From the NCBI GenBank assembly GCA_965230975.1, contig OZ246402.1, forward strand, positions 101,771-165,770: a stretch of DNA of 64,000 bases. The letters run 5' to 3'. Position 1 is the first letter of the stretch; the number at the start of each line of letters is the position of its first letter. This stretch comes from an uncultured Candidatus Saccharibacteria bacterium. Its GTDB lineage: Bacteria; Patescibacteriota; Dojkabacteria; J137. Under the pieces are notes generated by a model. It worked only from the letters and a program-made list of their open reading frames with translations, was not told where the DNA came from and searched no databases. Shown one piece after another: positions 8,702-47,012 of this stretch. Made by a program: the position numbers and the translations under genes.

Positions 8702-11700
8702 ATGAAACAGACCAAACTATTTCTTATAGCAACTGGCCTATTTGCAGTTTTAATTAGTACGTTTGGGCTTTTGAAAATATTTCATCCTCAAATCTTTGCA
8801 GATGGTGGAGATGTAACTCCGCCTACATTTAATTTTACAAGTGCTCCTACAGGTAATATTAGTGGTTCGAGCGTTACATATACTTTCTCAACAACTGATT
8901 CTGAATCTAGCATAAACAATATTGAGTATGCTCTAAATCCAGGTCCCACTCAAATTGTGCGAAAAATATATGTAGATGGCGTTCAAGTCGGCTCATCTCA
9001 CTACACATCTAATATTCCAGATATACTTGCAGATAACTTTACAATTGGTCAAGCAGGTGGCGTTGGGAGTAATTTTGCAGGTTCTATTGATGAAGTTAGA
9101 ATTTATAACAGGGCTTTAAATTCAAGAGAAGTTGATAACCTTTACGACTATCCGGCAGACACACTTAATGTGAAAATTCCAGTAGGTGGGACTATAGCCT
9201 CTTGGAACATGGATGGAGCATGGAATGGCACCCCCGGTGAAGTAACAGATGATCAAATAGGAATGAATGGGTCAATTCAGAACGGGGTAACGCAATCACC
9301 TGGTATTTTAGATGAAGCTGCAACATTTGACGGCGTAGATGATTACATTTCATTTGGAGATGTTTCATTGTTACCTTCTGGAAATAGTTACTACTCTATT
9401 AGTGCTTGGATTAAACCAGATGCAATGACTACTAGTGGCATTTTGGGTTGGGGAAACTTTGGTGCTACTTCATATGGTAGCAATGGACTTCTTTTACTAG
9501 ATACTGGTATTAATAACTTTTGGTGGGACGATGACTATTCTGAAACAACTGCAGACTTATCTGGTTCTTGGCATCATGTAGTTGTTACCTATGGTCCGGA
9601 CCGAATACCTTTAAACGCACAAGATGGAGTTTATGAAGAAACTTCTGAAGGTGCTACTGTTACCTTAAACGAAGTTGATTTCACTCTAGGAGAAGCTCAA
9701 ACCATAACTTTTTACTCTATAGATGAGTTTGGAAATACAGGCTCTACATCTTATAATTTTACATTTGTAGGTGATTCAGATGTGGATTTACCTAGCATTA
9801 CTTTTACAGAGTCACCTACGGGTCTGCAACCGGCCATTTTTACATATAGTGGAACAGCAACAGATGCTACTTCGAATATATCATACATAGACTGGCAAAT
9901 AGATTCTGGTAGTAGAAGCACTGTCTTTGCACTAGACGGAGATTATGATGAACAATCAGAGGGTTTTGAATTAGAGGTAAAAGCTTCACCTGAATTTGCG
10001 AATATTACGGGTACACACACCATAAAATTCTATGTGGTTGACATTGAGAATAACGAGCAAATGTATAGCTTTAACGTAGATGTTGATAGAGATGCTCCAA
10101 ACTGTACTCCTGGGTGGGTTTATCAAGAAAACCCTTACATAGGTAATACTGTAACATACGCAAATATTCACTGTACAGAAAATAGAGATCAAATAACAGC
10201 TGCTTACTATGATGTTTATCATGCTGTTGAAGGAACCCTAATTAGTCCTCAAAATATTAATCCCGTAGATGGGGTTTTCGATGAAAACTCTGAAGATTTC
10301 ACTTTTACTTTTACATTAGATGCCAATACAGATTTAGATGGGCCAATAATTGTTACTTTTAAAACGGAAGATGAAGCAGGTAATATAAGTTTAGATTTAG
10401 ACCCATTTGTTATTGAGTATGTAGACGATAGCGAACCTGTAATAAATCTAGACCAAGTAACTCCAGACCCGATCTCTGATACTACTCCTAAAATAACTGG
10501 TAGTTGTGTTGACGACACACAGTTTGATACAAACTCCTACATTAAATTAATTGAATATAATGTAGACGGAGGTGCTTGGAGCAATGTTGATTCATTAGAA
10601 GCACCTTATGAAGATAGTTATTCAGAAATATTCTCTTTTGAGCTACCAGAACAGTCAATTGGAAGCCATATAGTCAATATTAGATGTACAGACATGGCAG
10701 ATCAAGTATCTACTGATTCTGATACCTTTGAAATTGTAGCGGTAAACGAGGCATTATCTGCCGGCAACTTTTCTCATACAGATTCATTTACAGACCACAC
10801 TTTTCAAGACATACCCAACTCAACTTTAATTTGGGGTAATGGAAGGCTAAGATTAAAAGAAGATATAACAATTACAAGAAGTGTTATAGATAATGCAGAT
10901 TATCCTAACAGATATGCAGATGTTAGAAGTTATTATGGTGCAGTAAAAGACCCAGACGACTCAAATTTAATTTGGTATACAAAAAACAATAGAATTTATA
11001 AATATTTCATAAATTCTAATACAACTGAGGCATTGGACATGAATACTATTTTTGGATTTGATTTCTTTCAAGAATTACACAAAATTACTGTAAACAAATT
11101 TGGAACAAAGAAACTTTTGTGGGCACCAGATGCATATGGAATGTCTGTATACAACATTACAGATAATCAGACTGTAAGAATAACTATTACCGGTGGAGTT
11201 AACGAACTAGACCCAGATGTAGATAGAGGTAGATTAGGTGCTTACCTTACAACTGGTACACCTGTACCAATGGGTTACACAAACTTTATTTACTATAACT
11301 TTAATAACACGTTAACAAACACAGGAGATGATGTTACAACTCAGTGGCCTATAGATGCAAATTTCAGTGAAACAGATGCTTTAAGAATGTTTAGAGATAA
11401 AACAACAAATACTAACGATGTTTACTTAAGTTACTACACAAATGGCAAACTTGTTAAATTTAATGATAACAACACACCCAGTAACTTTGCAGATGACCAA
11501 GTGCTCAGTTATTCTGGATACACATCAATTTTTGGGTTTAGTTTAGATTCACAAGGAAGACTTATTTTTGGAACTGCTAATAACTCAAACGGAGAATTAT
11601 TTGTTGTTACTAACGATAATAATACCCCTTATATTGGTGGGGACGATACAATAACTAGAATAGCAACAAATAGGCAACTTGGTTTTGGGGGAGTGTTTGG

Positions 11701-14092
11701 AGTTGATTTCATGGAAGGTCAAAATGATGTAGGTGATCAAATTCTAGTAACAATGGCAGGCGGTGATATGGTCTACATTAATTTCAATGATACCTATACA
11801 GACTTATTAGATGATACCTTCATTCCGTTACCGGTTAGAGGAGGAATTAGGCCAGGAGATGTAACGGCTTTAATAATTGATTATGATAACCTATATGTAA
11901 ATATAGATACTTTAGGTTTTTATAAAGTACATTTAAACAGGGGTTGGGTAGATTCGGGAGAAGCCATAGGAGTTCCACAAAGACCTTCGCAAAAATTAAT
12001 ACTTGATAATTTTGTTGCAAGTGCAGAAACAGGAAGTAATATAGTTGCTGGCACTGTTCAAGAGCCTAACTTCTTTGAAAAATTGATAAATGCTTTTATT
12101 CCAAAAGTTAAAGCTGCAGAAAATGGTATAAGTTACTATATTTCTAATGATGATGGAGTAACTTGGCAGGAAGTTACGTTAGGACAAATTAAAAACTTAA
12201 ATCCAAACGACTACAGGGTTAAGTTTAAAATAGTTATGACCGAATTAACTGGACAAAGCCCTACTCTTCAGGATTATACAGTTAGTTTTGCAGGGTATAC
12301 TACACCACAGCAGGCTCAAGAGGCAACATCACTAAGCATTATTGCTCACCCAACATCTGTATTAAAGAACACTAATTTTAATATAACCGTCTCTGCTCTA
12401 GATACTTTGGGATTTGTGGTACCAACCTATTCGAATATCGTTACACTAGAGTTACTTAACAATGGTAATGTGGCATCCGGATTAACTCCATCTTCTATTA
12501 ATATTACTAATGGAACTGCAACAATTACTAATGCACAAGTGCAAAATACAGGAGTCTATAGAATTAGAGCAACTCAAGGTGCTTTGACTGCTCAATCTAA
12601 TCAGCTTACAGTGACCCAACAAAGCTTTATTCCTATATCTGCAAATGCTACATTGTCAGTAATTAACTTTGAGGCAGATAAGTACACAATAAAGAAAGGT
12701 GATTCTGTTACATTAACCTGGACAAGTGCAAACCTTGATACATTAACATTAACCCCTAACAAAGGAGTTGTAGACTCTACCGGTTCTTATACACTATCTT
12801 TAGATGAAACAACAGAATTTACCCTTTCGGGGACTGGTCCAAATGGAGAGCTCTCCTCTAGTCTAACCATTGTTGTACAAGATGAAACTTTACAAGATTT
12901 AACCCTTAAAACTTCTCAAGATATAAGTGTTAAACAAGGTGAAAAAGCTACTATAACATGGCAAACAACTGGTGCAGATACTGTATTTATCGATTTAATT
13001 GGGAAAAATGTAAGTTCTAAAGGTTCTTATGAATTTTACCCTACAGAAGATACGGTTGTCACAATAACCGCATTCCAAGGAGATAAATCTATATCTCAAA
13101 AAATAAAAATAAACGTGTTAAATGATAATAGCGAAGCAAACCAAGTTGTAGGAGTCTTATCACAGGTACCAACAGCAGGTGTATTTGTTTTAGGAATAAT
13201 AAACTCAGGTTTATTAGTAAGCTTATTATTGAACGTACTAACTAGTGTTCAAAGCAAACTTACATTAGACACCTTGTCAAATATACTTAGGATTATTGGT
13301 ATTATTCCATTCAAAAAGAGGCGTGGGTTTGTTTATCAAACAAACACAAGTAAACCGGTTGCTTTTGCAGTATTAAATATCCTAAGCAAAGGGAAAACGT
13401 TAACCTCAATAATTTCAGATCTAAATGGTATTTATTACGAACCATTTTTATCTAAAGGCGAATATATTTTAGATGTAAAGAGAGAGGAACATGCATTCCC
13501 AACCGCAAAGAAGAGGCCTGCACAGTTGACCGAATTTGATTTTTACAAAGGTGAAGAGCTAAACATTACTAGCAATAAGTTACAACAGGCAATTGTAATA
13601 CCAATGGATAAAACTAACATGTCAGATAAGAAGAGTCTAATAAACTGGAATAAAGTTAGCTTGTCGTTAACTAGACTTTTAGTGTGGTTACAATGGACAG
13701 TTTATCCTATGTGTGTACTTGCTCTTGTATTCTTGATTACATCTCCAAACATCGTTAATCTATTAGTATTTGTATTCTACTTTGTAATAGTTGCATTCAA
13801 GCTTAAAGAAAAGTTAAAAACACCATCTTTAGAAGGTTTGGTTTATGATAAAGAAGCCAACAAAGGAATTTCTGGAGTTGTAGTAGAACTTAGAGCAAAT
13901 AATCAATTAGTTGCTCTAGAAATTACAAATTCAAAAGGAAGATATTCTTTCTTTGTTCCAGAAGGTAAATATAGCATCCACTTATCTCACGAGCATTATG
14001 CAATGAGAACAGAATTCGGACAAGTTTTAGAAGTAGATATAAAAGATACAAAAAAGAAAATGAATTTTGGAATGGGTAAACTTTCTGCTTAA
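8702..14092 (+). CDS. giant (1796 aa) surface protein: signal anchor, 2x LamG-like (concanavalin-type) domains, Ig/Big-like and beta-propeller-like repeats, C-terminal polytopic membrane region with two CarboxypepD_reg-like domains
   Basis: N-terminal hydrophobic segment. LamG_3 motifs (NFTIGQAGGVGSNFAGSIDEVRIYNRALNSREVDNLY; ATFDGVDDYISFGD...SAWIKPD). Repeated TLTPNKGVVDSTGSYTLSLDETTEFTLSGTG Ig-like modules. C-terminal TM helices (LVWLQWTVYPMCVLALVFLITSPNIVNLLVFVFYFVIVAF) are interleaved with GISGVVVELRANNQLVALEITNSKGRYSFFVPEGKYSI (CarboxypepD_reg-like). Confidence 0.7.
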   Translation: MKQTKLFLIATGLFAVLISTFGLLKIFHPQIFADGGDVTPPTFNFTSAPTGNISGSSVTYTFSTTDSESSINNIEYALNPGPTQIVRKIYVDGVQVGSSHYTSNIPDILADNFTIGQAGGVGSNFAGSIDEVRIYNRALNSREVDNLYDYPADTLNVKIPVGGTIASWNMDGAWNGTPGEVTDDQIGMNGSIQNGVTQSPGILDEAATFDGVDDYISFGDVSLLPSGNSYYSISAWIKPDAMTTSGILGWGNFGATSYGSNGLLLLDTGINNFWWDDDYSETTADLSGSWHHVVVTYGPDRIPLNAQDGVYEETSEGATVTLNEVDFTLGEAQTITFYSIDEFGNTGSTSYNFTFVGDSDVDLPSITFTESPTGLQPAIFTYSGTATDATSNISYIDWQIDSGSRSTVFALDGDYDEQSEGFELEVKASPEFANITGTHTIKFYVVDIENNEQMYSFNVDVDRDAPNCTPGWVYQENPYIGNTVTYANIHCTENRDQITAAYYDVYHAVEGTLISPQNINPVDGVFDENSEDFTFTFTLDANTDLDGPIIVTFKTEDEAGNISLDLDPFVIEYVDDSEPVINLDQVTPDPISDTTPKITGSCVDDTQFDTNSYIKLIEYNVDGGAWSNVDSLEAPYEDSYSEIFSFELPEQSIGSHIVNIRCTDMADQVSTDSDTFEIVAVNEALSAGNFSHTDSFTDHTFQDIPNSTLIWGNGRLRLKEDITITRSVIDNADYPNRYADVRSYYGAVKDPDDSNLIWYTKNNRIYKYFINSNTTEALDMNTIFGFDFFQELHKITVNKFGTKKLLWAPDAYGMSVYNITDNQTVRITITGGVNELDPDVDRGRLGAYLTTGTPVPMGYTNFIYYNFNNTLTNTGDDVTTQWPIDANFSETDALRMFRDKTTNTNDVYLSYYTNGKLVKFNDNNTPSNFADDQVLSYSGYTSIFGFSLDSQGRLIFGTANNSNGELFVVTNDNNTPYIGGDDTITRIATNRQLGFGGVFGVDFMEGQNDVGDQILVTMAGGDMVYINFNDTYTDLLDDTFIPLPVRGGIRPGDVTALIIDYDNLYVNIDTLGFYKVHLNRGWVDSGEAIGVPQRPSQKLILDNFVASAETGSNIVAGTVQEPNFFEKLINAFIPKVKAAENGISYYISNDDGVTWQEVTLGQIKNLNPNDYRVKFKIVMTELTGQSPTLQDYTVSFAGYTTPQQAQEATSLSIIAHPTSVLKNTNFNITVSALDTLGFVVPTYSNIVTLELLNNGNVASGLTPSSINITNGTATITNAQVQNTGVYRIRATQGALTAQSNQLTVTQQSFIPISANATLSVINFEADKYTIKKGDSVTLTWTSANLDTLTLTPNKGVVDSTGSYTLSLDETTEFTLSGTGPNGELSSSLTIVVQDETLQDLTLKTSQDISVKQGEKATITWQTTGADTVFIDLIGKNVSSKGSYEFYPTEDTVVTITAFQGDKSISQKIKINVLNDNSEANQVVGVLSQVPTAGVFVLGIINSGLLVSLLLNVLTSVQSKLTLDTLSNILRIIGIIPFKKRRGFVYQTNTSKPVAFAVLNILSKGKTLTSIISDLNGIYYEPFLSKGEYILDVKREEHAFPTAKKRPAQLTEFDFYKGEELNITSNKLQQAIVIPMDKTNMSDKKSLINWNKVSLSLTRLLVWLQWTVYPMCVLALVFLITSPNIVNLLVFVFYFVIVAFKLKEKLKTPSLEGLVYDKEANKGISGVVVELRANNQLVALEITNSKGRYSFFVPEGKYSIHLSHEHYAMRTEFGQVLEVDIKDTKKKMNFGMGKLSA

Positions 14093-25795: not shown

Positions 25796-26611
25796 ATGGT
25801 GTCCGACATGGTGGACGTTAAAGATATAAAGCAAAATTTAATTATTTTAGGGCTAGAAGATTCAGAAGCTCGTATTTACATAGAGCTATTAAACCATGAA
25901 TCTTTAACAGTCCTTGAAATTGCATCATTACTAAACATTCCAAGAACCACTGTTTATAGGATTTGCGAGAAACTAGGTAAAAAACAGTTTGCAGAATGGA
26001 TAATCAAAGAGAATTCTACAAGAATAAAAGCTGTTAAACCTACAGATTTAAAACAGTTAATTGAATCTAAACGTGAAGAAGTTATCTCAGCAGAAACTGC
26101 ACTAAAATCTTTAGAAAGTATGATCTCTACTCCACTTAAAAATCTACCTGGAACACAAGTAAGATATTACCAAGGCAAAGAAGGTTTAAGGCAAATGATG
26201 TGGAATTGTTTAAAAGCTAAGGATGAAATTGTAGGTTGGTCTGTTTATGGTAGAGCTTCTATTATAGGAGAGTCATTTATGGATTCTTATGTAAACGAAT
26301 TTAAAAGAAGAAAGTTAGGAGATAGGGCTATTATGAACGAGAAAGGGCTTGAATATAATAAGATTCCCGAAAATCTAGTCAATCACCAACAGACCTTTGA
26401 AGATATGCGATTTATTCCAGAGAGTAAATTTTATATTGCGGGGGATACTAGTATTTACAACAATGTATTTGCATATTGTGTTTGGAATCACGGAGAAGTT
26501 ATTGGAGTGGAAATTGAAAACCCAGAAATAGTTAAGACTCAAAGATCTATTTTTAATATTCTGTGGGAAATTGCAGAACCAGTAGAGAATATACTTAAGA
26601 CTTCGAATTAA
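25796..26611 (+). CDS. TrmB-family transcriptional regulator
   Basis: N-terminal HTH LGLEDSEARIYIELLNHESLTVLEIASLLNIPRTTVYRICEKL, then a coiled region and a C-terminal effector-like domain. Confidence 0.6.
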   Translation: MVSDMVDVKDIKQNLIILGLEDSEARIYIELLNHESLTVLEIASLLNIPRTTVYRICEKLGKKQFAEWIIKENSTRIKAVKPTDLKQLIESKREEVISAETALKSLESMISTPLKNLPGTQVRYYQGKEGLRQMMWNCLKAKDEIVGWSVYGRASIIGESFMDSYVNEFKRRKLGDRAIMNEKGLEYNKIPENLVNHQQTFEDMRFIPESKFYIAGDTSIYNNVFAYCVWNHGEVIGVEIENPEIVKTQRSIFNILWEIAEPVENILKTSN

Positions 26612-27845
26612 TTATCCCTGCTACCTTCATACCGTTGTACACAGCTGTTTCCATTGTAGGAAATGACAAGTAATCTCCTGTAAAGTAAATATCATCTTTA
26701 CCTTGAAGGCTTCTTAATCTCTTAATATCTTTTACAGGTACAATAGGCATATTTTTTTGAAAGAAGGTAATTGAATGAATTTTTTTTATTTTAGCGTCTG
26801 AGAAATATCTTTTAAGTTCTTTCATCAAAATCATTCTTAACTTTACCTCTTCTAGCTCTTCGTCACTTTCAGACTTAAGATATGCTAATAAATATTTGTC
26901 TGATAATTTTCCAAATGTCATCCAGCTCAAATTAACTAAGCTTGATATCTCGTAATTTTTATATAACGGTTCTGCAAATATTCCAGCCCAAGAACCTCCA
27001 TTTAAAGGTAGCTCTTCCTCTACTTCAAAAATAATTGTGTAATACTTGGTTGTTTCAACCTTACTAATTGAAGTTTTAATAGGCATATTTTTAATGTGAG
27101 GGGTTGCTACCACAATTATATCTGTGGTAATTTCTTGGCCGTTAGCAAGGGTTACAGAACCTTTTTTAAAGCTATCCACTTGAGTATTTAAATGTATATT
27201 TACTCCATTATTACTTAAAGCCTTTGCTAATTTTGAAACAACTTTACTTGTTGGCAATAAATTTCCTGCTGACTCCATCCCTCCTTTTAAAAGCATCATC
27301 TCTAAAAAAGCAATTGCACTTATATAAGAAAGCTTATTGCCAGTTTGATAAGTAAATCCTGTAAAGAAAGAATCCACATATCTATAAATTAAATTCCTTT
27401 TCGAGAAAACTCTTCTAAAAATCTTATATAAAGTTTCTCCTTTCCCATCTGGTGTATAAAATCTTTTTTTATATGAATGTGCAAAAGGAATTGTTAATAG
27501 AATCAAAATTATTATTCTTTTAAAAGAGGTACCTTTCCCAATAATATTTGTTTGAAACTTCTTATATTTATTTCCTACTAACCAAAATCCGTAAACAGGT
27601 TTAAAATCCCTATATTCACCTTCTAAATCCAACTCTTTTACTAGTTGCTTAAAGTATTTATACCACTTGGCAACAATAAATCCACCTACGTCAATTTCTA
27701 CCCCTTCCACATTTACAGACATTACCCTACCACCTAATCTATCAGATGCTTCCACCAATTCTATTTGATAATTCCCTAACTTTGATAACTGATAGCAGGC
27801 TGTCATGCCTGATAATCCGCCTCCAATAACAACTACTTTTTTCAT
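26595..27845 (-). CDS. FAD-dependent oxidoreductase (amine-oxidase/protoporphyrinogen-oxidase-like fold)
   Basis: Dinucleotide-binding KKVVVIGGGLSGMTACYQLSK...EASDRLGGRV. C-terminal FAD motif IYFTGDYLSFPTMETAVYNGMKVA. Confidence 0.75.
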   Translation of the reverse strand: MKKVVVIGGGLSGMTACYQLSKLGNYQIELVEASDRLGGRVMSVNVEGVEIDVGGFIVAKWYKYFKQLVKELDLEGEYRDFKPVYGFWLVGNKYKKFQTNIIGKGTSFKRIIILILLTIPFAHSYKKRFYTPDGKGETLYKIFRRVFSKRNLIYRYVDSFFTGFTYQTGNKLSYISAIAFLEMMLLKGGMESAGNLLPTSKVVSKLAKALSNNGVNIHLNTQVDSFKKGSVTLANGQEITTDIIVVATPHIKNMPIKTSISKVETTKYYTIIFEVEEELPLNGGSWAGIFAEPLYKNYEISSLVNLSWMTFGKLSDKYLLAYLKSESDEELEEVKLRMILMKELKRYFSDAKIKKIHSITFFQKNMPIVPVKDIKRLRSLQGKDDIYFTGDYLSFPTMETAVYNGMKVAGIINSKS

Positions 27846-27965
27846 ATTAATGATGGTTTGTTTGAATATTAAAAAGTATATATTAATAAATTATGCACTT
27901 CCACATTAAATTGACATCTTAAACAAAAATATTGAATAATGGCAAAATAACTCTTACTTATTTTT

Positions 27966-29165
27966 ATGAATGTAGTAGACAAGCTTATACAAAATGCCTT
28001 AGAAAAAGGTGGAAAAGTTGCTACTTTTAAGGTTATTTTGCCAGATGGAACGGTCAAGCAAGCTGGAAAAGGAAAAAAAGATGACTTTGTATTTAGAATG
28101 AAAAGCAAAGAGGTATATTCTGCGGCAATACGAAAAGGCGAATTTGGCATAGGAGAACAATACATGTTGGGAAACTGGGATATTGAAGGTGATTTTATGA
28201 AAGCACTTAAACTTGCAGGGAGTGAAAGCTTAATGAAAGATGCCAGAAGGACAACAGTGTCTAGTGCTAGTCAAAAAGTTTTAAGACTTTTACAAACAAA
28301 CAACAAACACGAATCTTTAAAAAATGTAGCTTATCATTACGATTTAGGAAATGAATTTTATGCAAAATGGTTAGATAAATCTATGACTTATTCTTGTGCA
28401 TATTTCAAAACGGAGAAAGATTCTATAGATAAAGCTCAAGAACAAAAGTTAGAACATATTTGCCGAAAACTAATGCTTAAAAAGGGAGAAACTTTAGTGG
28501 ATATTGGTTCAGGTTGGGGAAGCATGCTTATTTACGCAGCCAAACATTATAGTGTAAAAGGTTATGGTGTAACATTATCAAAAGAACAGGTTGAATATGC
28601 TAACGAAAGAGCAAAAAAAGAGGGTGTTGAAAAGTTGGTTAAATTTGAACTTAAAGACTATAGAGATATCGATGGGAAGTTTGATAAGTTTGTTTCTATT
28701 GGAATGTTTGAACATGTTGGTAGAAAAAACTATAAAGCATTCTTTAAAAAGATAGATGAAATTTTAAACCCAGGAGCAATTGGACTACTTCATAGCATTT
28801 GTACAGACAGACCTTGGCCATATAATGCATATGCCTGGATTGAAAAATATATATTTCCTGGAGGAGAATTACCAACTCCTACTGAGATTCTAAACTACTC
28901 TACTTTACAAAAATTTGTACCTTTAGATTTAGAAAACCTTAGAATGCATTACGCTTTGACTCTTTCTAGGTGGTTAGAAAACTATGAAAAGATTTTTGAC
29001 CAAACAGCAAAAGAAAGAGGTATGCCATTTGCAAGAATGTGGAGGCTATATTTAGCAATGTCTCAATCAAATTTTGAGCAAGGTGATTTAAGGCTTTATC
29101 AATTGACTTTTAGTAAAGGAAGAACAAATAACATTCCTTTAACAAGAGAACATATTTATAAATGA
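27966..29165 (+). CDS. cyclopropane-fatty-acyl-phospholipid synthase family SAM-dependent lipid methyltransferase
   Basis: AYHYDLGNEFYAKWLDKSMTYSCAYF, a SAM motif LVDIGSGWGSMLIYAAKHY, and C-terminal YLAMSQSNFEQGDLRLYQLTFSK. The full CMAS architecture is present. Confidence 0.85.
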   Translation: MNVVDKLIQNALEKGGKVATFKVILPDGTVKQAGKGKKDDFVFRMKSKEVYSAAIRKGEFGIGEQYMLGNWDIEGDFMKALKLAGSESLMKDARRTTVSSASQKVLRLLQTNNKHESLKNVAYHYDLGNEFYAKWLDKSMTYSCAYFKTEKDSIDKAQEQKLEHICRKLMLKKGETLVDIGSGWGSMLIYAAKHYSVKGYGVTLSKEQVEYANERAKKEGVEKLVKFELKDYRDIDGKFDKFVSIGMFEHVGRKNYKAFFKKIDEILNPGAIGLLHSICTDRPWPYNAYAWIEKYIFPGGELPTPTEILNYSTLQKFVPLDLENLRMHYALTLSRWLENYEKIFDQTAKERGMPFARMWRLYLAMSQSNFEQGDLRLYQLTFSKGRTNNIPLTREHIYK

Positions 29166-29195: not shown

Positions 29196-30407
29196 ATGGA
29201 TACAAAAGTATACTTAGATAATTTAATGCGTCTACCTCATAGAGGATCTGCTACTATTGAAGAGAAAAAAGCTGCTGAATATTTAAAACAAGAGTACGAA
29301 AATATTGGATTACCTACCGAACTTCAAACTTTCAAAACAATATTCAAAGGTGGTGTAATTGAATTCTTAGTTCCTGCCGTCGTGTTGACAATATCATATC
29401 TCTTGTTAATGTCTGGATACCAATCCTACGCTATTGCTGTTGGATTTATAGGTTGTATTCTTTACTTTAAAATACCTGCAAATTTTATACTATTACTCAA
29501 GGGATTCTCTAACTCTTACTCTCAAAATGTAGTTGCAAAACTAACTAAACCAAGCGCAAAAAAGACACTTGTTATTGTTGGTCATTACGATACAGCAATG
29601 GAGACTGTTTATATGAAATCGATTGGTAAAGCTTATAATGCACTATTTAAAACAAAGAAACAAGAGAATAAGACTTCTAGACTAGATAGTGACAAGCTTC
29701 CATTCTTTTTAAAAACTCCAGTTATCTTACCTAATCTTGGAATTGTTTTATTATTTGTTACTTTGCTGACTGGTTATAGGAATATTGGATTAGATATTTT
29801 TATTCTTTTTGTATGTGCTTATTGCATATCCTTCCCCTTAATTGTTTGGCGTGCACCGTTTGTTCCCGGTGCTTTTGACAATGGTGTTGCTGCAGCTATG
29901 GTTGTATCTTTAGCTAAGTATTTTGTAAATAACAGACCAGAAAATATAAATGTTATTTTTTTAAATACAGGTTGTGAAGAAAACTCGGTTAAGGGCATTA
30001 ATGATTTTTTAAAGAAAAATTCAATAGAAAAAGAAACTACTTATTTTCTTAACCTGGAGTCTATAGGGGCAGATAAGCCAGTTATTTGCTACGCAGAATC
30101 TGAGCTTTGGACAGGATGGCCAATGAAATATGACAAAGAGGCTTATAAGCTTGCATCGGATTTAATTAAAGAAGACTCTAGATTTGCAAGATTTGAAGAA
30201 ACTTACATACCAGCGCCATCAGATATGATTGTTGTTGTGGAAGAAGGTTACAAAGTTATTACCCAAATCGCATCTTTATCAAAGAAAGGTTTTCCAGAGC
30301 ATTATCATCAAATGAGTGATGTAGAAGAAAACATCGACTGGGATTCTGTTAACCTTTGTTTTGAATTTGCTAAAGAGTTAGTTATAAAGTTTGATAGAAA
30401 TTTCTAA
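29196..30407 (+). CDS. membrane-embedded M28-like peptidase family protein
   Basis: LVIVGHYDTAM (HxD metal-ligand motif) and LNLESIGA (NxDxxG-like), with 4-5 hydrophobic helices inserted between them. Confidence 0.45.
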   Translation: MDTKVYLDNLMRLPHRGSATIEEKKAAEYLKQEYENIGLPTELQTFKTIFKGGVIEFLVPAVVLTISYLLLMSGYQSYAIAVGFIGCILYFKIPANFILLLKGFSNSYSQNVVAKLTKPSAKKTLVIVGHYDTAMETVYMKSIGKAYNALFKTKKQENKTSRLDSDKLPFFLKTPVILPNLGIVLLFVTLLTGYRNIGLDIFILFVCAYCISFPLIVWRAPFVPGAFDNGVAAAMVVSLAKYFVNNRPENINVIFLNTGCEENSVKGINDFLKKNSIEKETTYFLNLESIGADKPVICYAESELWTGWPMKYDKEAYKLASDLIKEDSRFARFEETYIPAPSDMIVVVEEGYKVITQIASLSKKGFPEHYHQMSDVEENIDWDSVNLCFEFAKELVIKFDRNF

Positions 30408-35397: not shown

Positions 35398-36810
35398 ATG
35401 AAAATTAAAGACGAAAAACAGCTTTGGAAAACTGCCTTAGCACAAATTGAAATAAAAATAGATGCGCCAACTACATTTAGAACTTTTTTCCAAGAAACAA
35501 AACTCATATCTATTGATGGAAATACTGCAAGAATAGGTGTTCCAAATCCATACACCGCAGAGTGGTTAAAAAATAAATACGAAAGAATGATAAAAGACAC
35601 ACTTAGCTATGTTTTTGGAGAAACCTTAAATCCTGTTTTTGAAGTTTTGCAAAGAGTTGATTCTGAACCAGAACCGATTTCCGAAATAATGAATACAGAA
35701 AAACAACCCCTTTTATCTATGGAAAATGGTGTTATGGGAAATGTATTAGATTTGGTTAGAAAAGCTGGCCTTAATCCAAAATACACCATTTCAAATTATG
35801 TAGTTGGTAATTACAATATGATGGCACATGCAGCCGCAATTGGGGTTATTAACAATCCTGGAACTGCTTACAATCCATTATTTATTCATGGAAAAACTGG
35901 GCTTGGTAAAACTCATTTAGCACAAGCAATTGCGCGCTCAATAATAGAGAGAGATCCCTCAAAAAGGATTTTGTATACATCATCTGAGGGTTTTATGAAT
36001 GATATGGTTAAAGGTATTAAAAGTGGCCAAAGTGATAGAAACAGATCAAAGTACAGATCAATAGATTTATTGATCGTTGATGATATGCAGTTAATTTCAA
36101 AATGGGTTCATACTCAAGAGGAATTTTTTAATACTTTCAATGAATTATTTAATAATGGTAAGCAGATTATCCTTATTGCAGATAGAAGACCTGAAGAGAT
36201 TCAAAATATAGAAGCAAGGTTAAAAACAAGAATGCAAGGAGGTATGGTTGTAGATATTCAAAGCCCTGATTACGAAATTAGATTGGCAATTTTAGAAAAG
36301 AAGGCAGAACTTGGTGGAGTTAATTTAAAACCTCATGTTATAGAATTTATTGCCAGGTCAATTACCGACAATGTAAGAGAACTTGAAGGTGCTTTACAAA
36401 AAGTTTCTTTGTTTAATCAAATGAAGCCCAATGGAGATTTAACTTTAGAAGAGGTTGCTCACATGATTGGTAAAGATATTTCTTCAAAACGAGAACAGGT
36501 AAAAGTTCCGCAGGTTTTAAAAGAGGTGGGAAAAACTTTTAATGTTAGTGTTAAAGAGCTTAAGGGACCAAGAAGAACTAAAGATTTGGCACTAGCAAGG
36601 CAAGTTGCCATGTACATTTTAAGAGAGGAATTCAACTATAAGCTTGAAGAGGTTGCCAACTTTTTAAATCGAGAAGATCACACTACAGTGATTCATGCTA
36701 TTGATAAAGTTAAAAGCAAAATGATGTTGCAGGATGGTTTTAATAGACAGGTTGCAAAATTAATAACTACAATACAAGATAGTGCTACTGTAACACAGGA
36801 TATGGAATAG
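35398..36810 (+). CDS. dnaA: chromosomal replication initiator protein DnaA
   Basis: Walker A GKTGLGKTHLAQAI, Walker B LLIVDDMQ, sensor motifs, and a C-terminal DNA-binding domain LALARQVAMYILRE. Confidence 0.95.
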   Translation: MKIKDEKQLWKTALAQIEIKIDAPTTFRTFFQETKLISIDGNTARIGVPNPYTAEWLKNKYERMIKDTLSYVFGETLNPVFEVLQRVDSEPEPISEIMNTEKQPLLSMENGVMGNVLDLVRKAGLNPKYTISNYVVGNYNMMAHAAAIGVINNPGTAYNPLFIHGKTGLGKTHLAQAIARSIIERDPSKRILYTSSEGFMNDMVKGIKSGQSDRNRSKYRSIDLLIVDDMQLISKWVHTQEEFFNTFNELFNNGKQIILIADRRPEEIQNIEARLKTRMQGGMVVDIQSPDYEIRLAILEKKAELGGVNLKPHVIEFIARSITDNVRELEGALQKVSLFNQMKPNGDLTLEEVAHMIGKDISSKREQVKVPQVLKEVGKTFNVSVKELKGPRRTKDLALARQVAMYILREEFNYKLEEVANFLNREDHTTVIHAIDKVKSKMMLQDGFNRQVAKLITTIQDSATVTQDME

Positions 36811-38599: not shown

Positions 38600-41500
38600 T
38601 TATCTAATAATTAAGCTACTCATGCTAGTGATTTTAATCTGCTTACTTATTGGTAATATTGTGCTTTGCAAATAGTGTACTGTATATTTATTACCTCCTG
38701 CAACTCGAACATATTCAACTTTATTCCAAAGTGAGCTAAAGAGACGTGGGTCAGCAAGTTTTTTCCCTCCTGAACTAAATATAATATTTCCTTTTCCTAC
38801 AGCCTCTTCCATAACTAGTTTTTCTGTCAGGTTTGATGGAGAAGACGCATATTTAGGAATGCCCTTTGCAACAACTTTTGAAGCAATGGAGCTAATTCCA
38901 TAGCCTATTGCAGCGGTTACCCCCCCTGTTACACCACCTACAACTACAGCTTGAGCTAAACCTTCGACTGAAAATTGTTTTTCTTGAACTGCAACTTGTG
39001 CAGTATAGATAATAGCACCCGTCGCTGCACCAACTGCAATACCTACTCCAATTGCGCACACTACTGTCGCTAAACAAGCTGCCCCTGCTAACGCACCTGC
39101 CCCTACCGTTAATGCCGTAGACACAGCTGCACCTATTATTTCCCACTTATTTTCTTTGAAGAAATTACCTATCTCTTCCCAGAACATTCCACTAAAATCA
39201 TTCCCATTCAGCGGATCTACTGGATACACATAATCATTCTGTGTTCCACCTTCTACAGGGTCAACTTGCAAGAATCTACCTAATTCTGGAACATAAACTC
39301 TTGCACCCATTTGAATAAAATCAATATCAAACCTAACCTCTGTATCCCTTAAAGCACTACCACCAAAACCATAATCTGTAGTTGCAGCAATTTGAACCCC
39401 AAAAGGATCGTACCTAAAAATACTACCTGTATTCTTAGCAAGCACATTACCAGTTGAACTCATAATACTGTATTCAGAAACATCTGCTTTAACGGTCAAC
39501 CTTAAACCTGGTAAAGAAACATACCTTTCAATAATTGTACCTGCACCATTCTTTAAAACATCTGCAGAACTAGAACTACTACTAAACCCATAAACCTTAA
39601 CACTCTCACCCGAATTAAAATTACTGTTAATAACTCTACCTAAAACATCTCGAGTATATTGAATCCTACTACCCTCTTGAGAAACCGCTACATTTTGATC
39701 TGAAACATCATATTCAAAACTCAAATTACCCATCTCTATTGTATTACCGTGAGAATCATATTGAATCCCAGCAAACTTATTATTAGACGCTTGTATTAAT
39801 TTATCTGCAGCATCGTAACAATACTCGTTAGTAACAGTCACACCCTCAATAGTCAAAGAATCTGATGTCCTATTAAAATTCTTGTTTGAATTTTGAAAAG
39901 AACAATTAGTTGCCTGATTATAGTTATATGCAAATTGCCTATCTCCATAATCTGCTGCAACTAACCTATCTGCTTTATCAAAAGTATAGCTCTGATTATA
40001 AACTTGAGAATCTTGTGTAAACTTTTGAGCTAAAGTCAAACCTGATTGAGATTTAGTCAATTCTTCTGAAATAATTGTTCCATCACTTTGCCTCCAAGTA
40101 TATTTAATAGGCCTTTCTAAAGAATCTCTTGTAGTCCCTAAGTAAGCCAATTGTCCAGCCTCTGGATAAGTAATTGTAGAAACTCTACCTAAAGAATCGT
40201 AACTTACATTTGCATAAACAACTCCATTGTAAAGTTTAGATGTAACTTGAGAATAATCATTGTAAGTCCAAGACTCTGTACCGACTTCAGAAACCTTTTG
40301 AGTTAACCTATTTTGATTATTGTAAGTATAATTTGAAACACTTCCTAATGCATCTGTGTATTTAACTAAATTACCTAAGTAATCGTATTCAGAAATACTT
40401 ACAGTAGAACCATCCGTTACTAATCTTTTTAGTGGATTTCCACCATATGCAAAGTTATTAGTAACAGTCTTACCAGTCTTTTCATTGTTACTTGCAATAA
40501 CCTTGCTTTCTACTCTTCCTCTTGAATCATAATTTGTACAGTTCCATGCCTCGTCATTAATTTTACTCGCAACAACCCTACCAGAAGCATCATAAACAAC
40601 TTGTGTGCTTCTACCTACTTGTAAACCATCTCCATCTGGGTCTACCTCGGTTTTACCCTTTGCAAAACCAGCTTGAGAAACGGGGTCTGATGCAGGTGTA
40701 CATGGATTATCTACACTTTCTGTTGCTCCATAATATGAATATTTAGTAACAGATCCACCTGCTGAAGTTTTTGAAAGTTGCCTAAAGTAACCACTACCTT
40801 GAGGCTCATAACTTGCACTACTTTGATAATTTAAACCATTTGGATCTAAGACTTTATTTGCTACAAGACCGTATGCTGGGTCTTGATAGTTTGTTTTAGT
40901 TTCAATATTGCCGAGTTGTTGATCATAAATAACGTTTGTTGTAGCCAAGTTGTAACCAGGTGCTAAGTTGAGCCATTTATTAGTTTCTGTAATACCAGGG
41001 CCAGAAATTGTTGCATTAATAACAGGTGTAGTACCAAAACTTGCAAAATCTAATCTTACTCTATAAACCTTGCCTGCTTCTAAGGCAATTGAACCAGTTT
41101 TTTCAACACTTGTTGCAGATCTATTTGCCCAATTATCAATAATCAGTTGATCGTTAACAAATAATCTTGCACCGTCTGTATGTTGAAGTTTAAAGTTATA
41201 GGTTCCATTTTGAGCAATGCTTAATTTCCCTGTTAAAGAGAACCCTACTCCATCCATTCCCGCCTCTTTCGTAATGGGGAATGCTTGGTTTCTATAATCA
41301 AAATTCATTACTGCTTTGTCGTTATTGATTCCAAACTTGTGTAATTTTGGACTTCCGAATAACGTTGCTGTTGTTGGAGTATTACTTTTAACTTGATAAT
41401 AAGCAACTGCTGGACCTTGTAACCCCTCATCATATCTAGTTTCTGTTTTTGGAACTTGATTGACATAAGTAGATAATGGTTTTCTATCTGTACCAAACCA

Positions 41501-44500
41501 ACTTGCAGGTGCTGGGCCATAACTTTCTAAAGGTCTATCGTCTGAATCATAAATTGTAGTGCTTTTTAAACCTGTAGGACCAGTTGTACTTAAAATAATA
41601 TCTTTTGCACTATCCCATTCAGTTGTTGTACACAAAGCTATGTTGTCGCAAATCTTTGTAGTTCTATACTTAGAATCAAATTCTAAATATTTTGAATAAC
41701 CTACAGGTTCAGGTATTCCAACTAAATGTTGTTTAGAAGCTCTTGGGTAATATTCTAAGGTATGCTGTAAATTGGAATTCCCCGTATTACTTGGAAAGTA
41801 AACTTTTGTAGCTCTACCTAAAGCATCGTATTCAAAGTTGTAGCTAGCACCTTGTTCGTTTGCATTTCTTAAACCAGCCATTATGCTATCAATCATTCCT
41901 GTGTCTCTTAAAGAAGCTATTCTTCCATCTGTGTAGTAACCATACTCAAAAGATGCATCACCCGGGTAGTCAATTTTGTACAAATTGCCTTTATAGTAAT
42001 TAAACTTTGTCCATTTACCATCTGTTGTATAGAATGCACATAAGTGACCTGTTGGAATAGCATAGTCACCGCTAGTTGCGCTACACTCTGCTTCGCCTTG
42101 ATAGTAAAGTTTTCCAAACCTTGAGGAATCTACACCATCTATAATTCTTCTTAACCTTGTAAACCCACCTACATTTGCATACTCGTACTTTAATCCTGCT
42201 GGATTTTTATCATCATATGCAGTACTGGTTTCTTTTAATTTAAACTGCCCCGAGTTATCTAGTACATCATAAATATAAGTTGTGCCAGCTGTATCTGTAA
42301 AGGTATACGTACCATCATTATTTTTAACTAACCAACCATCCTCATTTACAGGTGATTTGTAACCTCCATTGTTGTAAGTGTATAAAGATTCTGTTCCATC
42401 TGTAGATATCATTACAACATCTTGATTTGCTTTTACTTTTAATGATTCAAAAGGGATAGAGCCATTAGAATCTAATGTTAAGTTCCATCCACTTGGCAAA
42501 GCTTTTACTTCTGGAATTAAATATTTACTTTCAATAACACCATTTAAACTAGGTCCAGTCCATTTTAAGGCTACTGATGCACCACCAGTTTTTTCGTACA
42601 TATCTACTACAATTTTGTTTGGTTGACCTGCCGTTAATTGAACACTGCCAGACCAAGCCTCAGTGTACCCATGGTCTGTCCAATTTTGAGCGATAATATT
42701 TCCATTTAAAGTAAGTCTGGAACCATCATCTGAACCAACTCCAAATGTATAATTGCCAGTAGTGGGAGCTATCACATAACCTTCATATCTAACTAAAAAG
42801 TTATCAACAGGGCCACCTACAACTGGTGAATACCCATCCCAATTATAGTTAATTTGAGGTTCATTTCTTAGTAAGAATCTAGTTGTATTTACATTAAAAT
42901 CATGGGTGCCATTGTCGTAATAATACTTACCTGTTAAACCCGTATTATTACTTAATGGAACAGGTGCTGTTCTAAAATATTCTGAAGGGACTACTTTTTG
43001 TGTACCATCTGGCATTTGAACATAAAGAATCGCTGTTGCTCCACCTCCAAACTCTACCATCTCCATTTTAATTGGCCATAGTTGACCCTCTGTAAGTGCT
43101 ACAGTATTGCCCATCCACTTTGTTCCGCAACATGGTGCATCTAAAATTACTGTGTTATTTCCATAAACTTTTATATTGTCATCTCCCATTACTCCAAATT
43201 TATAGTTACCTGTTGTTGGAGCAACAAAGTAACCTGACCATTGAGCCGAGAAATTATCTACACTTACTATTCCTGGGTAAGGAGACCCAGTTAGCCAATA
43301 ATTATCAATATTTGCATTTATAGTTGAATAGATTGGATCTCCGCTAAAAGTAGTGTTATTCCAATATTTAGCAGATAAACCCTCTCTGGTTATTGTTGGG
43401 GTATTGTATTCTAAGCCGATTCCAATATTCCCACCCAATGCATTCATTGAATGCGAGCTATTTGTTGTATATGCATTACCTGTTGCTAAGTTAACAGCAA
43501 AAGGACCTGCTTCATCGTAAGCTTGTGTAGGGTCTTTTCCTGCTCTAAAGTCCGTTTTGAAAGTTGCACTAAAAGACGGGCTTCCATGTTGATAATAATC
43601 GTCTCTAACGTATACACTCCACCTATATGTCTGACCATTTTGTAAAATACCATCTACCACAGTCATTGTTGGTGATGTAGTAAAACCACTTCTTTGTACA
43701 ATAGTATTATTGCTATCCCACAAAATAAATTCGTGGGTTAAGGTGTCTCCATCAGCATCATTTGCAGGGTTAGCTCTTAGGTTAACAGTTGTTGTTGTTA
43801 CTACAGAATTATCTGCAGGTGCACTTAAAGTAGCGTTATTATTTGGAATGTTGTTATAGGCCAAATTTAGTCTTGCATTGGCTGCATCAAAAGCTTTAAA
43901 TGTATCATATCTGTTTTCCTCTCCCCAAATAATTAACCAACCTCCATAAACTTTATTATCTGACAACCATTGGATTAAAGGTTTCATATCAATGTAACCG
44001 GAGGTTGTCATACGAGCACTCATTATAGGAGACCACCCAACGCAGTTAAAACTTATGCAACTTGCCCATGCAACGTTAATTTGTGCATTTGTATTGTAAA
44101 AACCGTTCCATCGATATGATTTGTAGCCCATTTGCAAATATAAATTTGCTCCTAAAACTTGCTTCCCAATTATTTCATCGTAATTAAATCTAACTACACT
44201 TCTCCAAGATTTTTGACCACCATCATTCAATCCACCTGTATTCATATCGCAATAAACATAATCACATGCATATCCATTACTTTTGTAAGAATAATATGCC
44301 CTAGATCCATTTTCTACTGTTTTTGTTGGGTAAACTGCAGGGTCTATTGATATGGGGAAGTTTTCTGGTTTTAATGATTTTAGCCAGTCTGCATTAAGAC
44401 TTACTTTAACTGTATTACCCTCAATTGTTTGACTTATTACATCTTCTGTAACTGGCCCAATGTTAGTAGCAATAATATATAGTGGTTCAATTACGAAGAC

Positions 44501-45334
44501 TTCATTACCAACTTTAATATTTAAAGCGCCTTTTTCTTCCGTTGAATATGATAATTCACCTCCAACAACTTCAAATTCAAAGTTTGGATTTTTTATGTAC
44601 TTATTTAATACAATATATTCTTTAATATAGTCATCATGAAATTCGTAAACCAAATCTACATTTTCCCAAGCATTTCTATAAATTACTGCACCTTCTAATT
44701 CTTCAGGTTTTACATTATTTATATTTTTGGGTTTGAAAGTTAGTTCTTGACCAGCTACATTAATCGTTATTCCATTAGAAAGTTTTTTATATTTAACATC
44801 TAATTTGCTTGAGTCTATCTCTAAATCTTCTTTGTTCTTTTTTACATTGTTTTTTATCTCTTTAAATGAATCATTCTCTTTTGTAAATCTATCTGTCAAA
44901 CTTTGCTCTACAATATTTAAACCTTCTTGTGTAGTATATTTTTTTGTTTTCTCATCTATATTTTTTGTATTTGAAGTATTTTTCTTTAGGTTTTCTATTT
45001 CTTCATTTTTTATAGACTTTAACTCTTGTTTATTATCGTTTGCAGTTGTACCACTTAACTTATCTGAATAATCAACCCCACTACCTAAAGGATATGGTGA
45101 TTCTTGTACTTTTAATGGGTCTATCCTATCTGCTTTCTTTATTTTGGAGTCTTGATAATTCTTATTCTCTTTGATTGCTTTCGAATTTAATCGAACAAAC
45201 TCAGATTCAGATACTTTCTTGCGTAACTCAATTATATTTTGTGCATTAATGGCTATTGGCTGAAATGTTTGAAATATTACTAAGAGGCACAGCAAGACAC
45301 CTACCCTACTTAAGTGTTTTAGGATTATATCCAT
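38600..45334 (-). CDS. secreted RHS/YD-repeat polymorphic toxin (2244 aa) with three PA14 domains and a variable C-terminal domain
   Basis: Signal peptide [34 protein letters not shown]14 hallmarks [26 protein letters not shown] and [14 protein letters not shown]. More than 15 YD repeats ([28 protein letters not shown], and others). The Rhs core ends [38 protein letters not shown]. The ~190-aa C-terminal tail has glycine-zipper hydrophobic stretches. Confidence 0.85.
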
Positions 45335-45866: not shown

Positions 45867-47012
45867 ATGGAAATCAAATTAAACCATACAAACTTAGCAA
45901 AGTCTTTACAATATACAAGTAGAGCTGTAAGTGCCAAACCAAACATACCAGTATTGAGTAATGTACTTTTAGATGTAACTAAAAATGGATTAAAACTTTC
46001 TGCAACTAATTTAGACATGGGGATAAACGTGTGGATACCTGGGTTGGTAGATCACGAGGGAAAGATTACTGTATCAGCAAAATTCATTTCTGACTTTGTA
46101 AGTGCATCTAGTGGAGACAATGTAGAGTTAAAATTAGATGGAAGTGTCGTAACTGTTAAAACAGATAAATCAAAAGCAAATTTTAATACAATATTAGCAA
46201 ATGAATTTCCGGTACTTCCAGAAATTTCCGAAACACCTCTCTTTAAAATCTCGGCAAAAGAATTTATGACATCTATGGATAAAGTCATATTTTCCTGCTC
46301 TACCGATATGAGCATTGGTAAGATTCAACAAAGTGGGGTTTTATTTGAACTTAATAAAGAAGATTCAGAAGTAATTTTTGTAGGTTTAGACGGTTTTAGA
46401 CTTTCTAAAAGAAATGCTAAGGTAAAAGATTTAGCAGAAACATTGCCTACAGAACAAATTATAGTGCCTGCAAAATACTTGGCTGAAGTTCAAAAGATTG
46501 CATCAGATTACGTAGATTTAGATGAAATTGAAGTTTATTTAAGTAAAAATAACTCTCAAATAATATTCAAATTTGAAGAGATTGAATTTAGCATTAGATT
46601 AATAGAAGGTCCTTACCCTGAATACAAAAGAATATTACCAGACTCTGCATCATTTACTTTTGAGGTAAAAAGAGGTGATTTAGAGAATGCTATTAAAGTT
46701 GTTAATACATTTGCAAGAAGTAACTTAGGTTACAAGACTTTGTTTGATTTAGATTTAGAAAACTCTGCTATTAAATTAAAATCAATTGTTGCAGAGGTTG
46801 GTGAAAATGAATCTATTGTTAATGTTACAGAAGTTCAGGCCGATACAGACTTAAATACATCTTACAACTTAAAGTTTATTCAAGATGTTGTTTCTCATAT
46901 TAAAGGAGATACTATTATTTTCGAAACAAAAGGCCCTTTGGCTGCGTCAGTATTTAAAGATAAATCAGATGCAAGGTTTGTACATTTGCTAATGCCTTTA
47001 AGAAGAGAATAA
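45867..47012 (+). CDS. dnaN: DNA polymerase III beta subunit (sliding clamp)
   Basis: 381 aa. N-terminus MEIKLNHTNLAKSLQYTSRAVSAKPNIPVLSNVLLDV, with a three-domain length. Confidence 0.9.
   Translation: MEIKLNHTNLAKSLQYTSRAVSAKPNIPVLSNVLLDVTKNGLKLSATNLDMGINVWIPGLVDHEGKITVSAKFISDFVSASSGDNVELKLDGSVVTVKTDKSKANFNTILANEFPVLPEISETPLFKISAKEFMTSMDKVIFSCSTDMSIGKIQQSGVLFELNKEDSEVIFVGLDGFRLSKRNAKVKDLAETLPTEQIIVPAKYLAEVQKIASDYVDLDEIEVYLSKNNSQIIFKFEEIEFSIRLIEGPYPEYKRILPDSASFTFEVKRGDLENAIKVVNTFARSNLGYKTLFDLDLENSAIKLKSIVAEVGENESIVNVTEVQADTDLNTSYNLKFIQDVVSHIKGDTIIFETKGPLAASVFKDKSDARFVHLLMPLRRE

Follow-up and report, generated by a model that had tools for sequence, protein, structure and literature searches.

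Cyclopropane fatty acid (CFA) synthase-type enzymes take a one-carbon (C1) unit from S-adenosylmethionine (SAM) and place it on a cis double bond within the acyl chains of phospholipids. Methyltransferases of the CMAS type have recruited three unrelated flavoproteins, namely BfaA (VAO type), TmpA (GGR type), and UfaD (CrtI type), and the co-location of CMAS homologues with flavin adenine dinucleotide (FAD) oxidoreductases has already been described in the literature (PMC7791843, PMC7380195). BfaA chemistry is NADPH-dependent, TmpA was described as geranylgeranyl-reductase-like (PMC7791843), and bfaA and bfaB form a co-directional operon with a 4-bp overlap (PMC5660069). The operon RSP1091-1087 of R. 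sphaeroides has the gene order ChrR/sigma-E, FAD oxidoreductase, DUF1365, CMAS (PMC7380195). Here, we analyzed a gene pair encoding a CFA-synthase-family methyltransferase and an FAD flavoprotein in a 64-kb stretch (the window) of contig OZ246402.1 of an uncultured Candidatus Saccharibacteria bacterium. A preliminary description had likened this pair to the BfaA/BfaB module. The two open reading frames (ORFs), their divergent orientation with a 120-bp spacer, and both family assignments, which rest on matches too strong for chance, were confirmed; coupling of a CFA-type methyltransferase with a flavoprotein stands as a legitimate hypothesis, since the pair recurs in two other loci (L003 and L002; loci are designated by our own numbers), but the likeness to BfaA/BfaB fails. 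We tentatively favor, at somewhat less than an even chance, a functional coupling in which the flavoprotein would be an oxidative or isomerizing partner of the methyltransferase.

The flavoprotein matched the Pfam family Amino_oxidase (PF01593) along its whole length (85.4 bits, residues 11–412) and NAD_binding_8 as well. A word-indexed search, which yielded seven hits (the protein itself, one relative with 53% identity, and the rest with no more than 26%), had given it the appearance of an orphan. This was overturned by an exhaustive HMMER search: about 60 cluster representatives of 405–435 aa were found, aligning over the full length with 25–53% identity to the flavoprotein. The family alignment and the profile derived from it, A1, comprised 55 sequences and contained an invariant GxGxxG, a GGR motif, a GGF..PWY motif, and a C-terminal GD..G.PSMETA motif. 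In the A1 profile search, family members scored 399–529 bits and the next best proteins (PPOX/CgoX-like) no more than 136 bits; this gap sharply delimits the clade. NCBIfam cut-offs were reached by none of the 55 members, the models matching most of them below cut-off being HpnE (54 of 55), a “hypothetical protein” model, PPOX, and CrtI/CrtD. Among the solved structures, the A1 profile matched B. subtilis PPO (95 bits), plant PPOX, and, over the full length, rice phytoene desaturase (PDS) and the P. acnes isomerase PAI, which acts on polyunsaturated fatty acids (2b9w). By these profile comparisons, the flavoprotein is a member of a distinct fast-evolving PPOX/CrtI/HpnE-like clade. The preliminary description had itself named a clustering with protoporphyrinogen or amine oxidases unrelated to lipid reductases as evidence against its proposal, and the nearest characterized proteins were indeed proto-/coproporphyrinogen oxidases and HpnE/CrtI-type enzymes.

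The AlphaFold2 model of the flavoprotein, built from a 26-sequence alignment, had a mean predicted local confidence (pLDDT) of 89.1 and a predicted template-modeling score (pTM) of 0.90. It superimposed on PPO/amine-oxidase-fold structures with template-modeling (TM) scores of 0.72–0.77 at 13–21% identity, the best Foldseek match being 3i6d (TM 0.75); PPO, NicA2, PAI, and PDS were all within 0.72–0.77, so that Foldseek gives no subfamily. A single dinucleotide-binding motif (GxGxxG, residue 8) and no NAD(P)H-binding domain were found in the protein. Its most hydrophobic stretch was FKRIIILILLTIPFAHSY (residues 107–125), and its curated nearest relatives (HpnE, CrtI/CrtD, PDS, PPOX, and PAI) all use hydrophobic substrates; we infer a membrane-associated enzyme with a lipophilic substrate. 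Going by what its family relatives do, an NAD(P)H-dependent reductase is less likely than an oxidase, a desaturase, or an isomerase.

Loci of the Genome Taxonomy Database (GTDB) with members of the flavoprotein family belonged to Dojkabacteria, Magasanikbacteria, Kerfeldbacteria, Uhrbacteria, Peregrinibacteria, and Saccharibacteria, as well as to Bacteroidetes, metagenome-assembled genomes (MAGs) labelled Gammaproteobacteria, Bdellovibrionales, Enhygromyxa, and Planctomycetota. In four of the MAGs labelled “uncultured Gammaproteobacteria” (L009, L011, L016, and L024), the neighborhood of the flavoprotein gene was the same as in Magasanikbacteria loci, and these labels may be wrong. The new elements are the flavoprotein clade itself, uncurated, mostly patescibacterial, and fast-evolving, and its sporadic association with CMAS genes.

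The comparison with the known reductases was based on the characterized BfaA, BfaB, TmpA, and TmpB sequences that Blitzblau et al. provide (PMC7791843, Additional file 3). The preliminary description had treated BfaA as an amine-oxidase-fold-like reductase; however, the sole Pfam match of BfaA from T. curvata and of Rv3719 was FAD_binding_4 (PF01565, VAO/PCMH type), and TmpA matched FAD_binding_3 (PF01494). This typing, together with BLASTP (E = 0.82 with BfaA and E = 2.3 with TmpA), ruled out the flavoprotein as a homologue of either protein. The A1 profile gave no match to BfaA and only 4.8 bits to TmpA. Since BfaA is of the PF01565 VAO type and has no similarity to the flavoprotein, the latter is not a BfaA, and its proposed role as the BfaA counterpart was not borne out. 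Homologues of BfaA, TmpA, and DUF1365 were not identified anywhere in the 64-kb window.

The methyltransferase matched the Pfam family CMAS (PF02353) with 303 bits, and DUF7884 with 25.6 bits, just short of the cut-off of 27. Its best solved relatives, all full-length CFA synthases of bacteria, were 7qos (Aquifex, 266 bits), 5z9o (Lactobacillus, 242 bits), and 6bqc (E. coli, 231 bits); residues 42–394 aligned to 7qos, and both the N-terminal domain, of the lipid-binding type, and the CMAS catalytic domain, with its Rossmann fold for SAM, were present. The gene product, METHYLTRANSFERASE, has thousands of relatives at 45–50% identity and a small nearer set at 54–70%. All five residues of the bicarbonate site of E. 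coli Cfa (C139, E239, H266, I268, and Y317) are kept (C144, E249, H276, I278, and Y329, respectively). The same five residues occur in BfaB and TmpB, and therefore they indicate competence but do not discriminate the product type. Pairwise identity does not sort the enzyme among the characterized product types either, being 31–38% to E. coli Cfa (38%), BfaB, and TmpB alike. Scores against the NCBIfam Cfa models were below the cut-offs (PRK11705, 329.2 vs. 400; CPFASynBruc, 337 vs. 600; CfaB, 298 vs. 650).

In a bootstrapped neighbor-joining tree, the deep support of which was weak, the methyltransferase was found in its own environmental clade, outside the clade of Cfa and Desulfobacter TmpB and the Marinobacter TmpB clade. 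It also fell outside the BfaB clade, at variance with the BfaB-like role suggested previously. E. coli Cfa grouped with the methylene-forming Desulfobacter TmpB in this tree; thus, phylogeny predicts the product poorly, and no product can be assigned to an enzyme lying outside the Cfa, BfaB, and TmpB clades. Judging from the conserved domains and active-site residues, the enzyme is a catalytically competent CFA-synthase-type acyl-chain C1-transferase, for which a cyclopropane ring would be the default expected product.

The layout of the pair recurs outside the window. L003 has the same order of TrmB-type regulator, flavoprotein, and CMAS genes. In L002 (4684–8420), the methyltransferase is 63% identical to that of the window and the flavoprotein 29% (full-length alignment, E = 5e-35); the flavoprotein gene is divergent to two tandem CMAS paralogues, which are 71% identical to each other, and a split transketolase flanks this trio, with its N-terminal half on one side and its C-terminal half on the other. 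These surroundings are unlike those in the window, and the L002 trio looks like a cassette insertion. The spacers between divergent flavoprotein and CMAS genes were 69–120 bp in length. L046 (13–3018, a MAG labelled Gammaproteobacteria) encodes on one strand a CMAS of the E. coli type, a methyltransferase of class I, a protein with a cytochrome b5 domain (59.8 bits), and a flavoprotein of the family, the gene of the latter being partly masked by N’s. The L046 flavoprotein belongs to a different subclade than that of the window, and by this placement L046 represents a second, independent association with CMAS. A flavoprotein near CMAS in L055 was rejected as a family member, with just 64 aligned columns.

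How the flavoprotein gene came to its place is suggested by L056 (4223–6203), where CMAS has a TrmB-family gene 40 bp upstream of it in the same orientation; the product of that TrmB-family gene aligned over the full length with the TrmB-family protein of the window (E = 2e-13, 21% identity). Since TrmB is directly upstream of CMAS in L056, the window reads as a TrmB–CMAS pair interrupted by a flavoprotein gene inserted on the opposite strand. The arrangement suggests that TrmB–CMAS is a conserved regulatory pair and that the flavoprotein gene was inserted into it. Between the window and L003 (358–1605), the flavoproteins are 53% identical, whereas the identity reaches 91% for the TrmB C-terminus and 89% for the CMAS N-terminus; the latter is not unusually conserved in other homologues. 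The flavoprotein ORF is intact and its cofactor motifs are kept despite the fast change; the latter may stem either from relaxed constraint or from an adaptation to substrates that vary.

Table 1. Features of the analyzed locus (coordinates within the window).
Feature	Position	Strand	Size	Remarks
FAD flavoprotein gene	26595–27845	−	416 aa	Uncharacterized PPOX/CrtI/HpnE-like clade, amine-oxidase superfamily
CFA-synthase-family SAM-dependent lipid methyltransferase gene	27966–29165	+	399 aa	Two domains; CMAS match
Divergent intergenic spacer	27846–27965		120 bp	Between the flavoprotein and methyltransferase genes
M28-family peptidase gene	29196–30407	+	403 aa	Peptidase_M28, 88.8 bits
TrmB-family winged-helix regulator gene	25796–26611	+	271 aa	TrmB, 54.2 bits
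Sigma70-like site TTGACA-18-AATAAT	27911–27940	+		11/12 match, upstream of the methyltransferase gene

The features of the locus are listed in Table 1. The TrmB-family and flavoprotein genes are convergent, and their 3′ ends share 17 bp (26595–26611); the TrmB-family protein is a possible regulator of the methyltransferase. The gene of the M28 peptidase, which has a long N-terminal extension, starts 30 bp 3′ of the methyltransferase gene on the same strand, and a search for a terminator-like site in this gap found none; the two genes are probably co-transcribed. An orthologue of the peptidase gene (L001: 4675–5888, 59% identity, two ORFs) also adjoins the methyltransferase gene but is divergent there. 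In L001, it fills the slot taken by the flavoprotein gene in the window. The sigma70-like site upstream of the methyltransferase gene was the top scorer within 4.2 kb, and both its hexamers are kept in the L003 spacer; on the minus strand, two sigma70-like sites with 9/12 matches face the flavoprotein gene. In total, 22 promoter-like sites were observed vs. 18.4 in shuffled sequences, i.e., there was no excess.

The source contig was 1,193,217 bp in length, and the G+C content of the window was about 32%; together with the relatives of the proteins, the genome size suggests a patescibacterium. An Rfam scan yielded a single tRNA. The window represents a housekeeping region with dnaA and dnaN; fab, heme, and carotenoid genes were not found among the 28 window ORFs scanned. 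The dnaA and dnaN genes are usually adjacent. Here, dnaA (35398–36810) and dnaN (45867–47012) are about 9 kb apart, and the interval holds an ORF of 2244 aa on the opposite strand (38600–45334). A second giant ORF (1796 aa) was located at 8702–14092. A pair of FemAB-family genes (47744–48862 and 49364–50344) was found near a gene of VanY-type D-Ala-D-Ala carboxypeptidase (51123–52595); together, they look like a cell-wall cross-bridge cluster.

Several observations weigh against functional coupling and bring forward the view, which we hold quite possible and rank second, that the two genes are unrelated neighbors: the methyltransferase would be a stand-alone CFA synthase, possibly TrmB-controlled and co-transcribed with the M28 peptidase, and the flavoprotein would have a separate job, its adjacency being due to descent. 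The methyltransferase gives the impression of a cyclopropane synthase that needs no partner. Only one of the 45 GTDB loci of the flavoprotein family (L046) had a CMAS gene within 6 kb, and the other 44 had none; L006 (Dojkabacteria, 40% identity), which holds the nearest relative in GTDB, shows unrelated genes around it and no CMAS. Clustering of ORFs over 48 loci revealed no neighbor gene of the family present in more than 6 of them (DEAD-box helicase, SDR). Conversely, the flavoprotein is missing from six of the nine loci of the methyltransferase clade (L001, L004, L005, the P0015 locus, L055, and L056), and the TrmB–CMAS adjacency in L056 makes the window pair look split by an inserted gene. 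The evolutionary rates are far apart: between the window and L003, the number of nonsynonymous substitutions per site (dN) was 0.395 for the flavoprotein vs. 0.061 and 0.042 for its flanks (6–9 times faster), and the ratio of dN to synonymous substitutions (dN/dS) was about 0.26 vs. about 0.05–0.06. Such a rate is unexpected for an obligate partner of the methyltransferase. Moreover, the flavoproteins of the window, L003, and L002 belong to one subclade, and thus common descent, and not selection, may account for their linkage. The view of unrelated neighbors is, however, opposed by L002, where a flavoprotein gene and two CMAS genes occur together in transketolase-flanked surroundings unlike those of the window, and by L046, where the association is independent, concerns a different subclade, and has a cytochrome b5 gene in it. 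Two to three independent co-locations in about 48 loci also exceed our rough guess of about 1% per locus by chance, a figure estimated rather than computed as a statistic.

Two further explanations keep a defined function for the flavoprotein. If it were a functional analogue of BfaA, the methyltransferase would make a mid-chain exo-methylene fatty acid, which the non-homologous flavoprotein would reduce to a methyl branch. A methylene product is possible for the window enzyme, as BfaB and TmpB share the Cfa bicarbonate site, and the grouping of E. coli Cfa with Desulfobacter TmpB implies that the product type switches easily. CrtI-fold enzymes can be saturases (RetSat), which also counts in favor of this explanation. 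Non-homologous reductases have, moreover, been recruited twice already (PMC7791843). We nevertheless consider it improbable: the flavoprotein lacks homology to BfaA or TmpA and contains a single motif for dinucleotide binding but not an NAD(P)H domain, whereas BfaA uses NADPH; its characterized relatives are nearly all oxidases, desaturases, or isomerases; the methyltransferase lies outside the BfaB and TmpB clades; and the genes are divergent rather than arranged as the overlapping bfaA-bfaB operon. We give the lowest probability to the flavoprotein being a genuine protoporphyrinogen/coproporphyrinogen oxidase or flavin amine oxidase, even though PPO/CgoX structures top both the sequence-profile and Foldseek lists and some family members are labelled protoporphyrinogen oxidase in some sources. 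The window protein scored 42.5 against TIGR00562 (cut-off 97.85) and 56.2 against PRK11883.1-5 (cut-off 560); all 55 family members missed the curated cut-offs, the best E value being 5e-20; the A1 profile separates the family (at least 399 bits) from PPOX-like proteins (at most 136 bits); and heme-pathway genes were absent from the 28 scanned ORFs. Classical flavin amine oxidases (MAO/PAO) possess an aromatic cage and, close to flavin N5, a conserved lysine in the active site. In the alignment of 55 sequences, no lysine was present among the invariant or nearly invariant columns, a result that holds at the level of alignment columns.

Under the favored functional coupling, scavenged acyl chains would be the main substrate of the methyltransferase in this genome of about 1.2 Mb, which is probably patescibacterial. 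The product would be a cyclopropane by default, with a methylene or a methyl-alkene being possible. The flavoprotein gene, inserted between the TrmB-type regulator and the methyltransferase, would be carried with CMAS genes as a cassette. Its product would not be an NADPH-dependent methylene reductase of the BfaA type but a facultative accessory enzyme, UfaD- or PAI-like, dehydrogenating or isomerizing acyl chains at the modified position or beside it, and the pair would perform a lineage-specific two-step remodeling of membrane lipids. The more specific proposal that the flavoprotein is a fourth independently recruited partner of CFA-synthase-type methyltransferases, oxidizing or isomerizing the methylated or cyclopropanated chains of host-scavenged phospholipids, seems to us less likely than not. 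If it were true, these organisms would contain an undescribed modified fatty acid, e.g., a methyl-branched conjugated diene, and the rapid evolution of the flavoprotein would mean that it has adapted to the differing lipids of hosts.

Patescibacteria are regarded as dependent on the lipids of their hosts, and their lipid tailoring is little understood. A CFA-synthase-type enzyme is direct evidence of acyl-chain modification after uptake. A literature search for Patescibacteria and cyclopropane fatty acids retrieved nothing relevant. If the flavoprotein takes part, a new enzyme family would enter mid-chain fatty-acid chemistry, which is relevant to membrane biology, lipid biomarkers, and the production of branched fatty acids. 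If it takes no part, a tempting misannotation is corrected, as an “FAD oxidoreductase next to cfa” does not equal BfaA. In addition, our analysis flags an uncurated fast-evolving PPOX-like family, at times labelled protoporphyrinogen oxidase in organisms that probably do not synthesize heme.

Compared with the BfaB/BfaA module (PMC5660069, PMC7791843), the locus has a methyltransferase of the same CMAS family with the same bicarbonate-site residues and an adjacent flavoprotein gene. Unlike in this module, the window methyltransferase has 34–38% identity to BfaB (179–202 bits), values that do not surpass those for Cfa or TmpB, and the genes are divergent with a spacer in place of the overlapping operon. 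The TmpB/TmpA system differs in the flavoprotein, TmpA belonging to PF01494 and the window protein to PF01593. With E. coli Cfa and the Aquifex (7qos) and Lactobacillus (5z9o) enzymes, the window methyltransferase shares the two-domain organization, full-length alignment, and all five bicarbonate residues, but it remains below the NCBIfam equivalog cut-offs and in a separate environmental clade. The flavoprotein has the same fold (TM 0.74–0.77) and a similar size (about 420 aa) as HemY/CgoX (3i6d), HpnE, CrtI/PDS, and PAI (2b9w), but its identity to them is 13–21%, the curated cut-offs are missed widely, and its clade stands apart in profile score.

The furan fatty-acid pathway UfaM/UfaD/UfaO of R. 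sphaeroides and Rhodopseudomonas palustris (PMC7380195) likewise combines a CMAS methyltransferase (UfaM, RSP2144) with an FAD enzyme of the amine-oxidase/CrtI superfamily (UfaD, RSP1091). As the UfaD-type reference, we used L054, an Azospirillum plasmid (H60) defined by synteny (ChrR/sigma-E, FAD oxidoreductase, DUF1365, CMAS); the cluster of FAD oxidoreductase, DUF1365, and CMAS was not found in the plasmid hits H19 (Burkholderia) or H32 (Paracoccus). Several differences from this pathway were revealed. The A1 profile scored the L054 reference at 64.6 bits vs. 93–148 bits for PPOX-like proteins, its BLASTP similarity to the window flavoprotein was confined to the FAD-binding ends, and hhalign gave 19% identity; with these values against a synteny-defined reference, the window flavoprotein is not a UfaD orthologue. 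The RSP1089-type CMAS of L054 is 31% identical to the window methyltransferase. A tblastn search of the whole window with the L054 DUF1365 protein, corresponding to UfaO, gave no match at E ≤ 1, and the ChrR/sigma-E context is absent from the window. On the other side, both the L054 reference and the window flavoprotein match Amino_oxidase, UfaD acts on a methylated acyl chain, and certain genomes have the flavoprotein gene in a cluster with CMAS genes. We regard UfaM/UfaD, and not BfaB/BfaA, as the nearest known system in logic.

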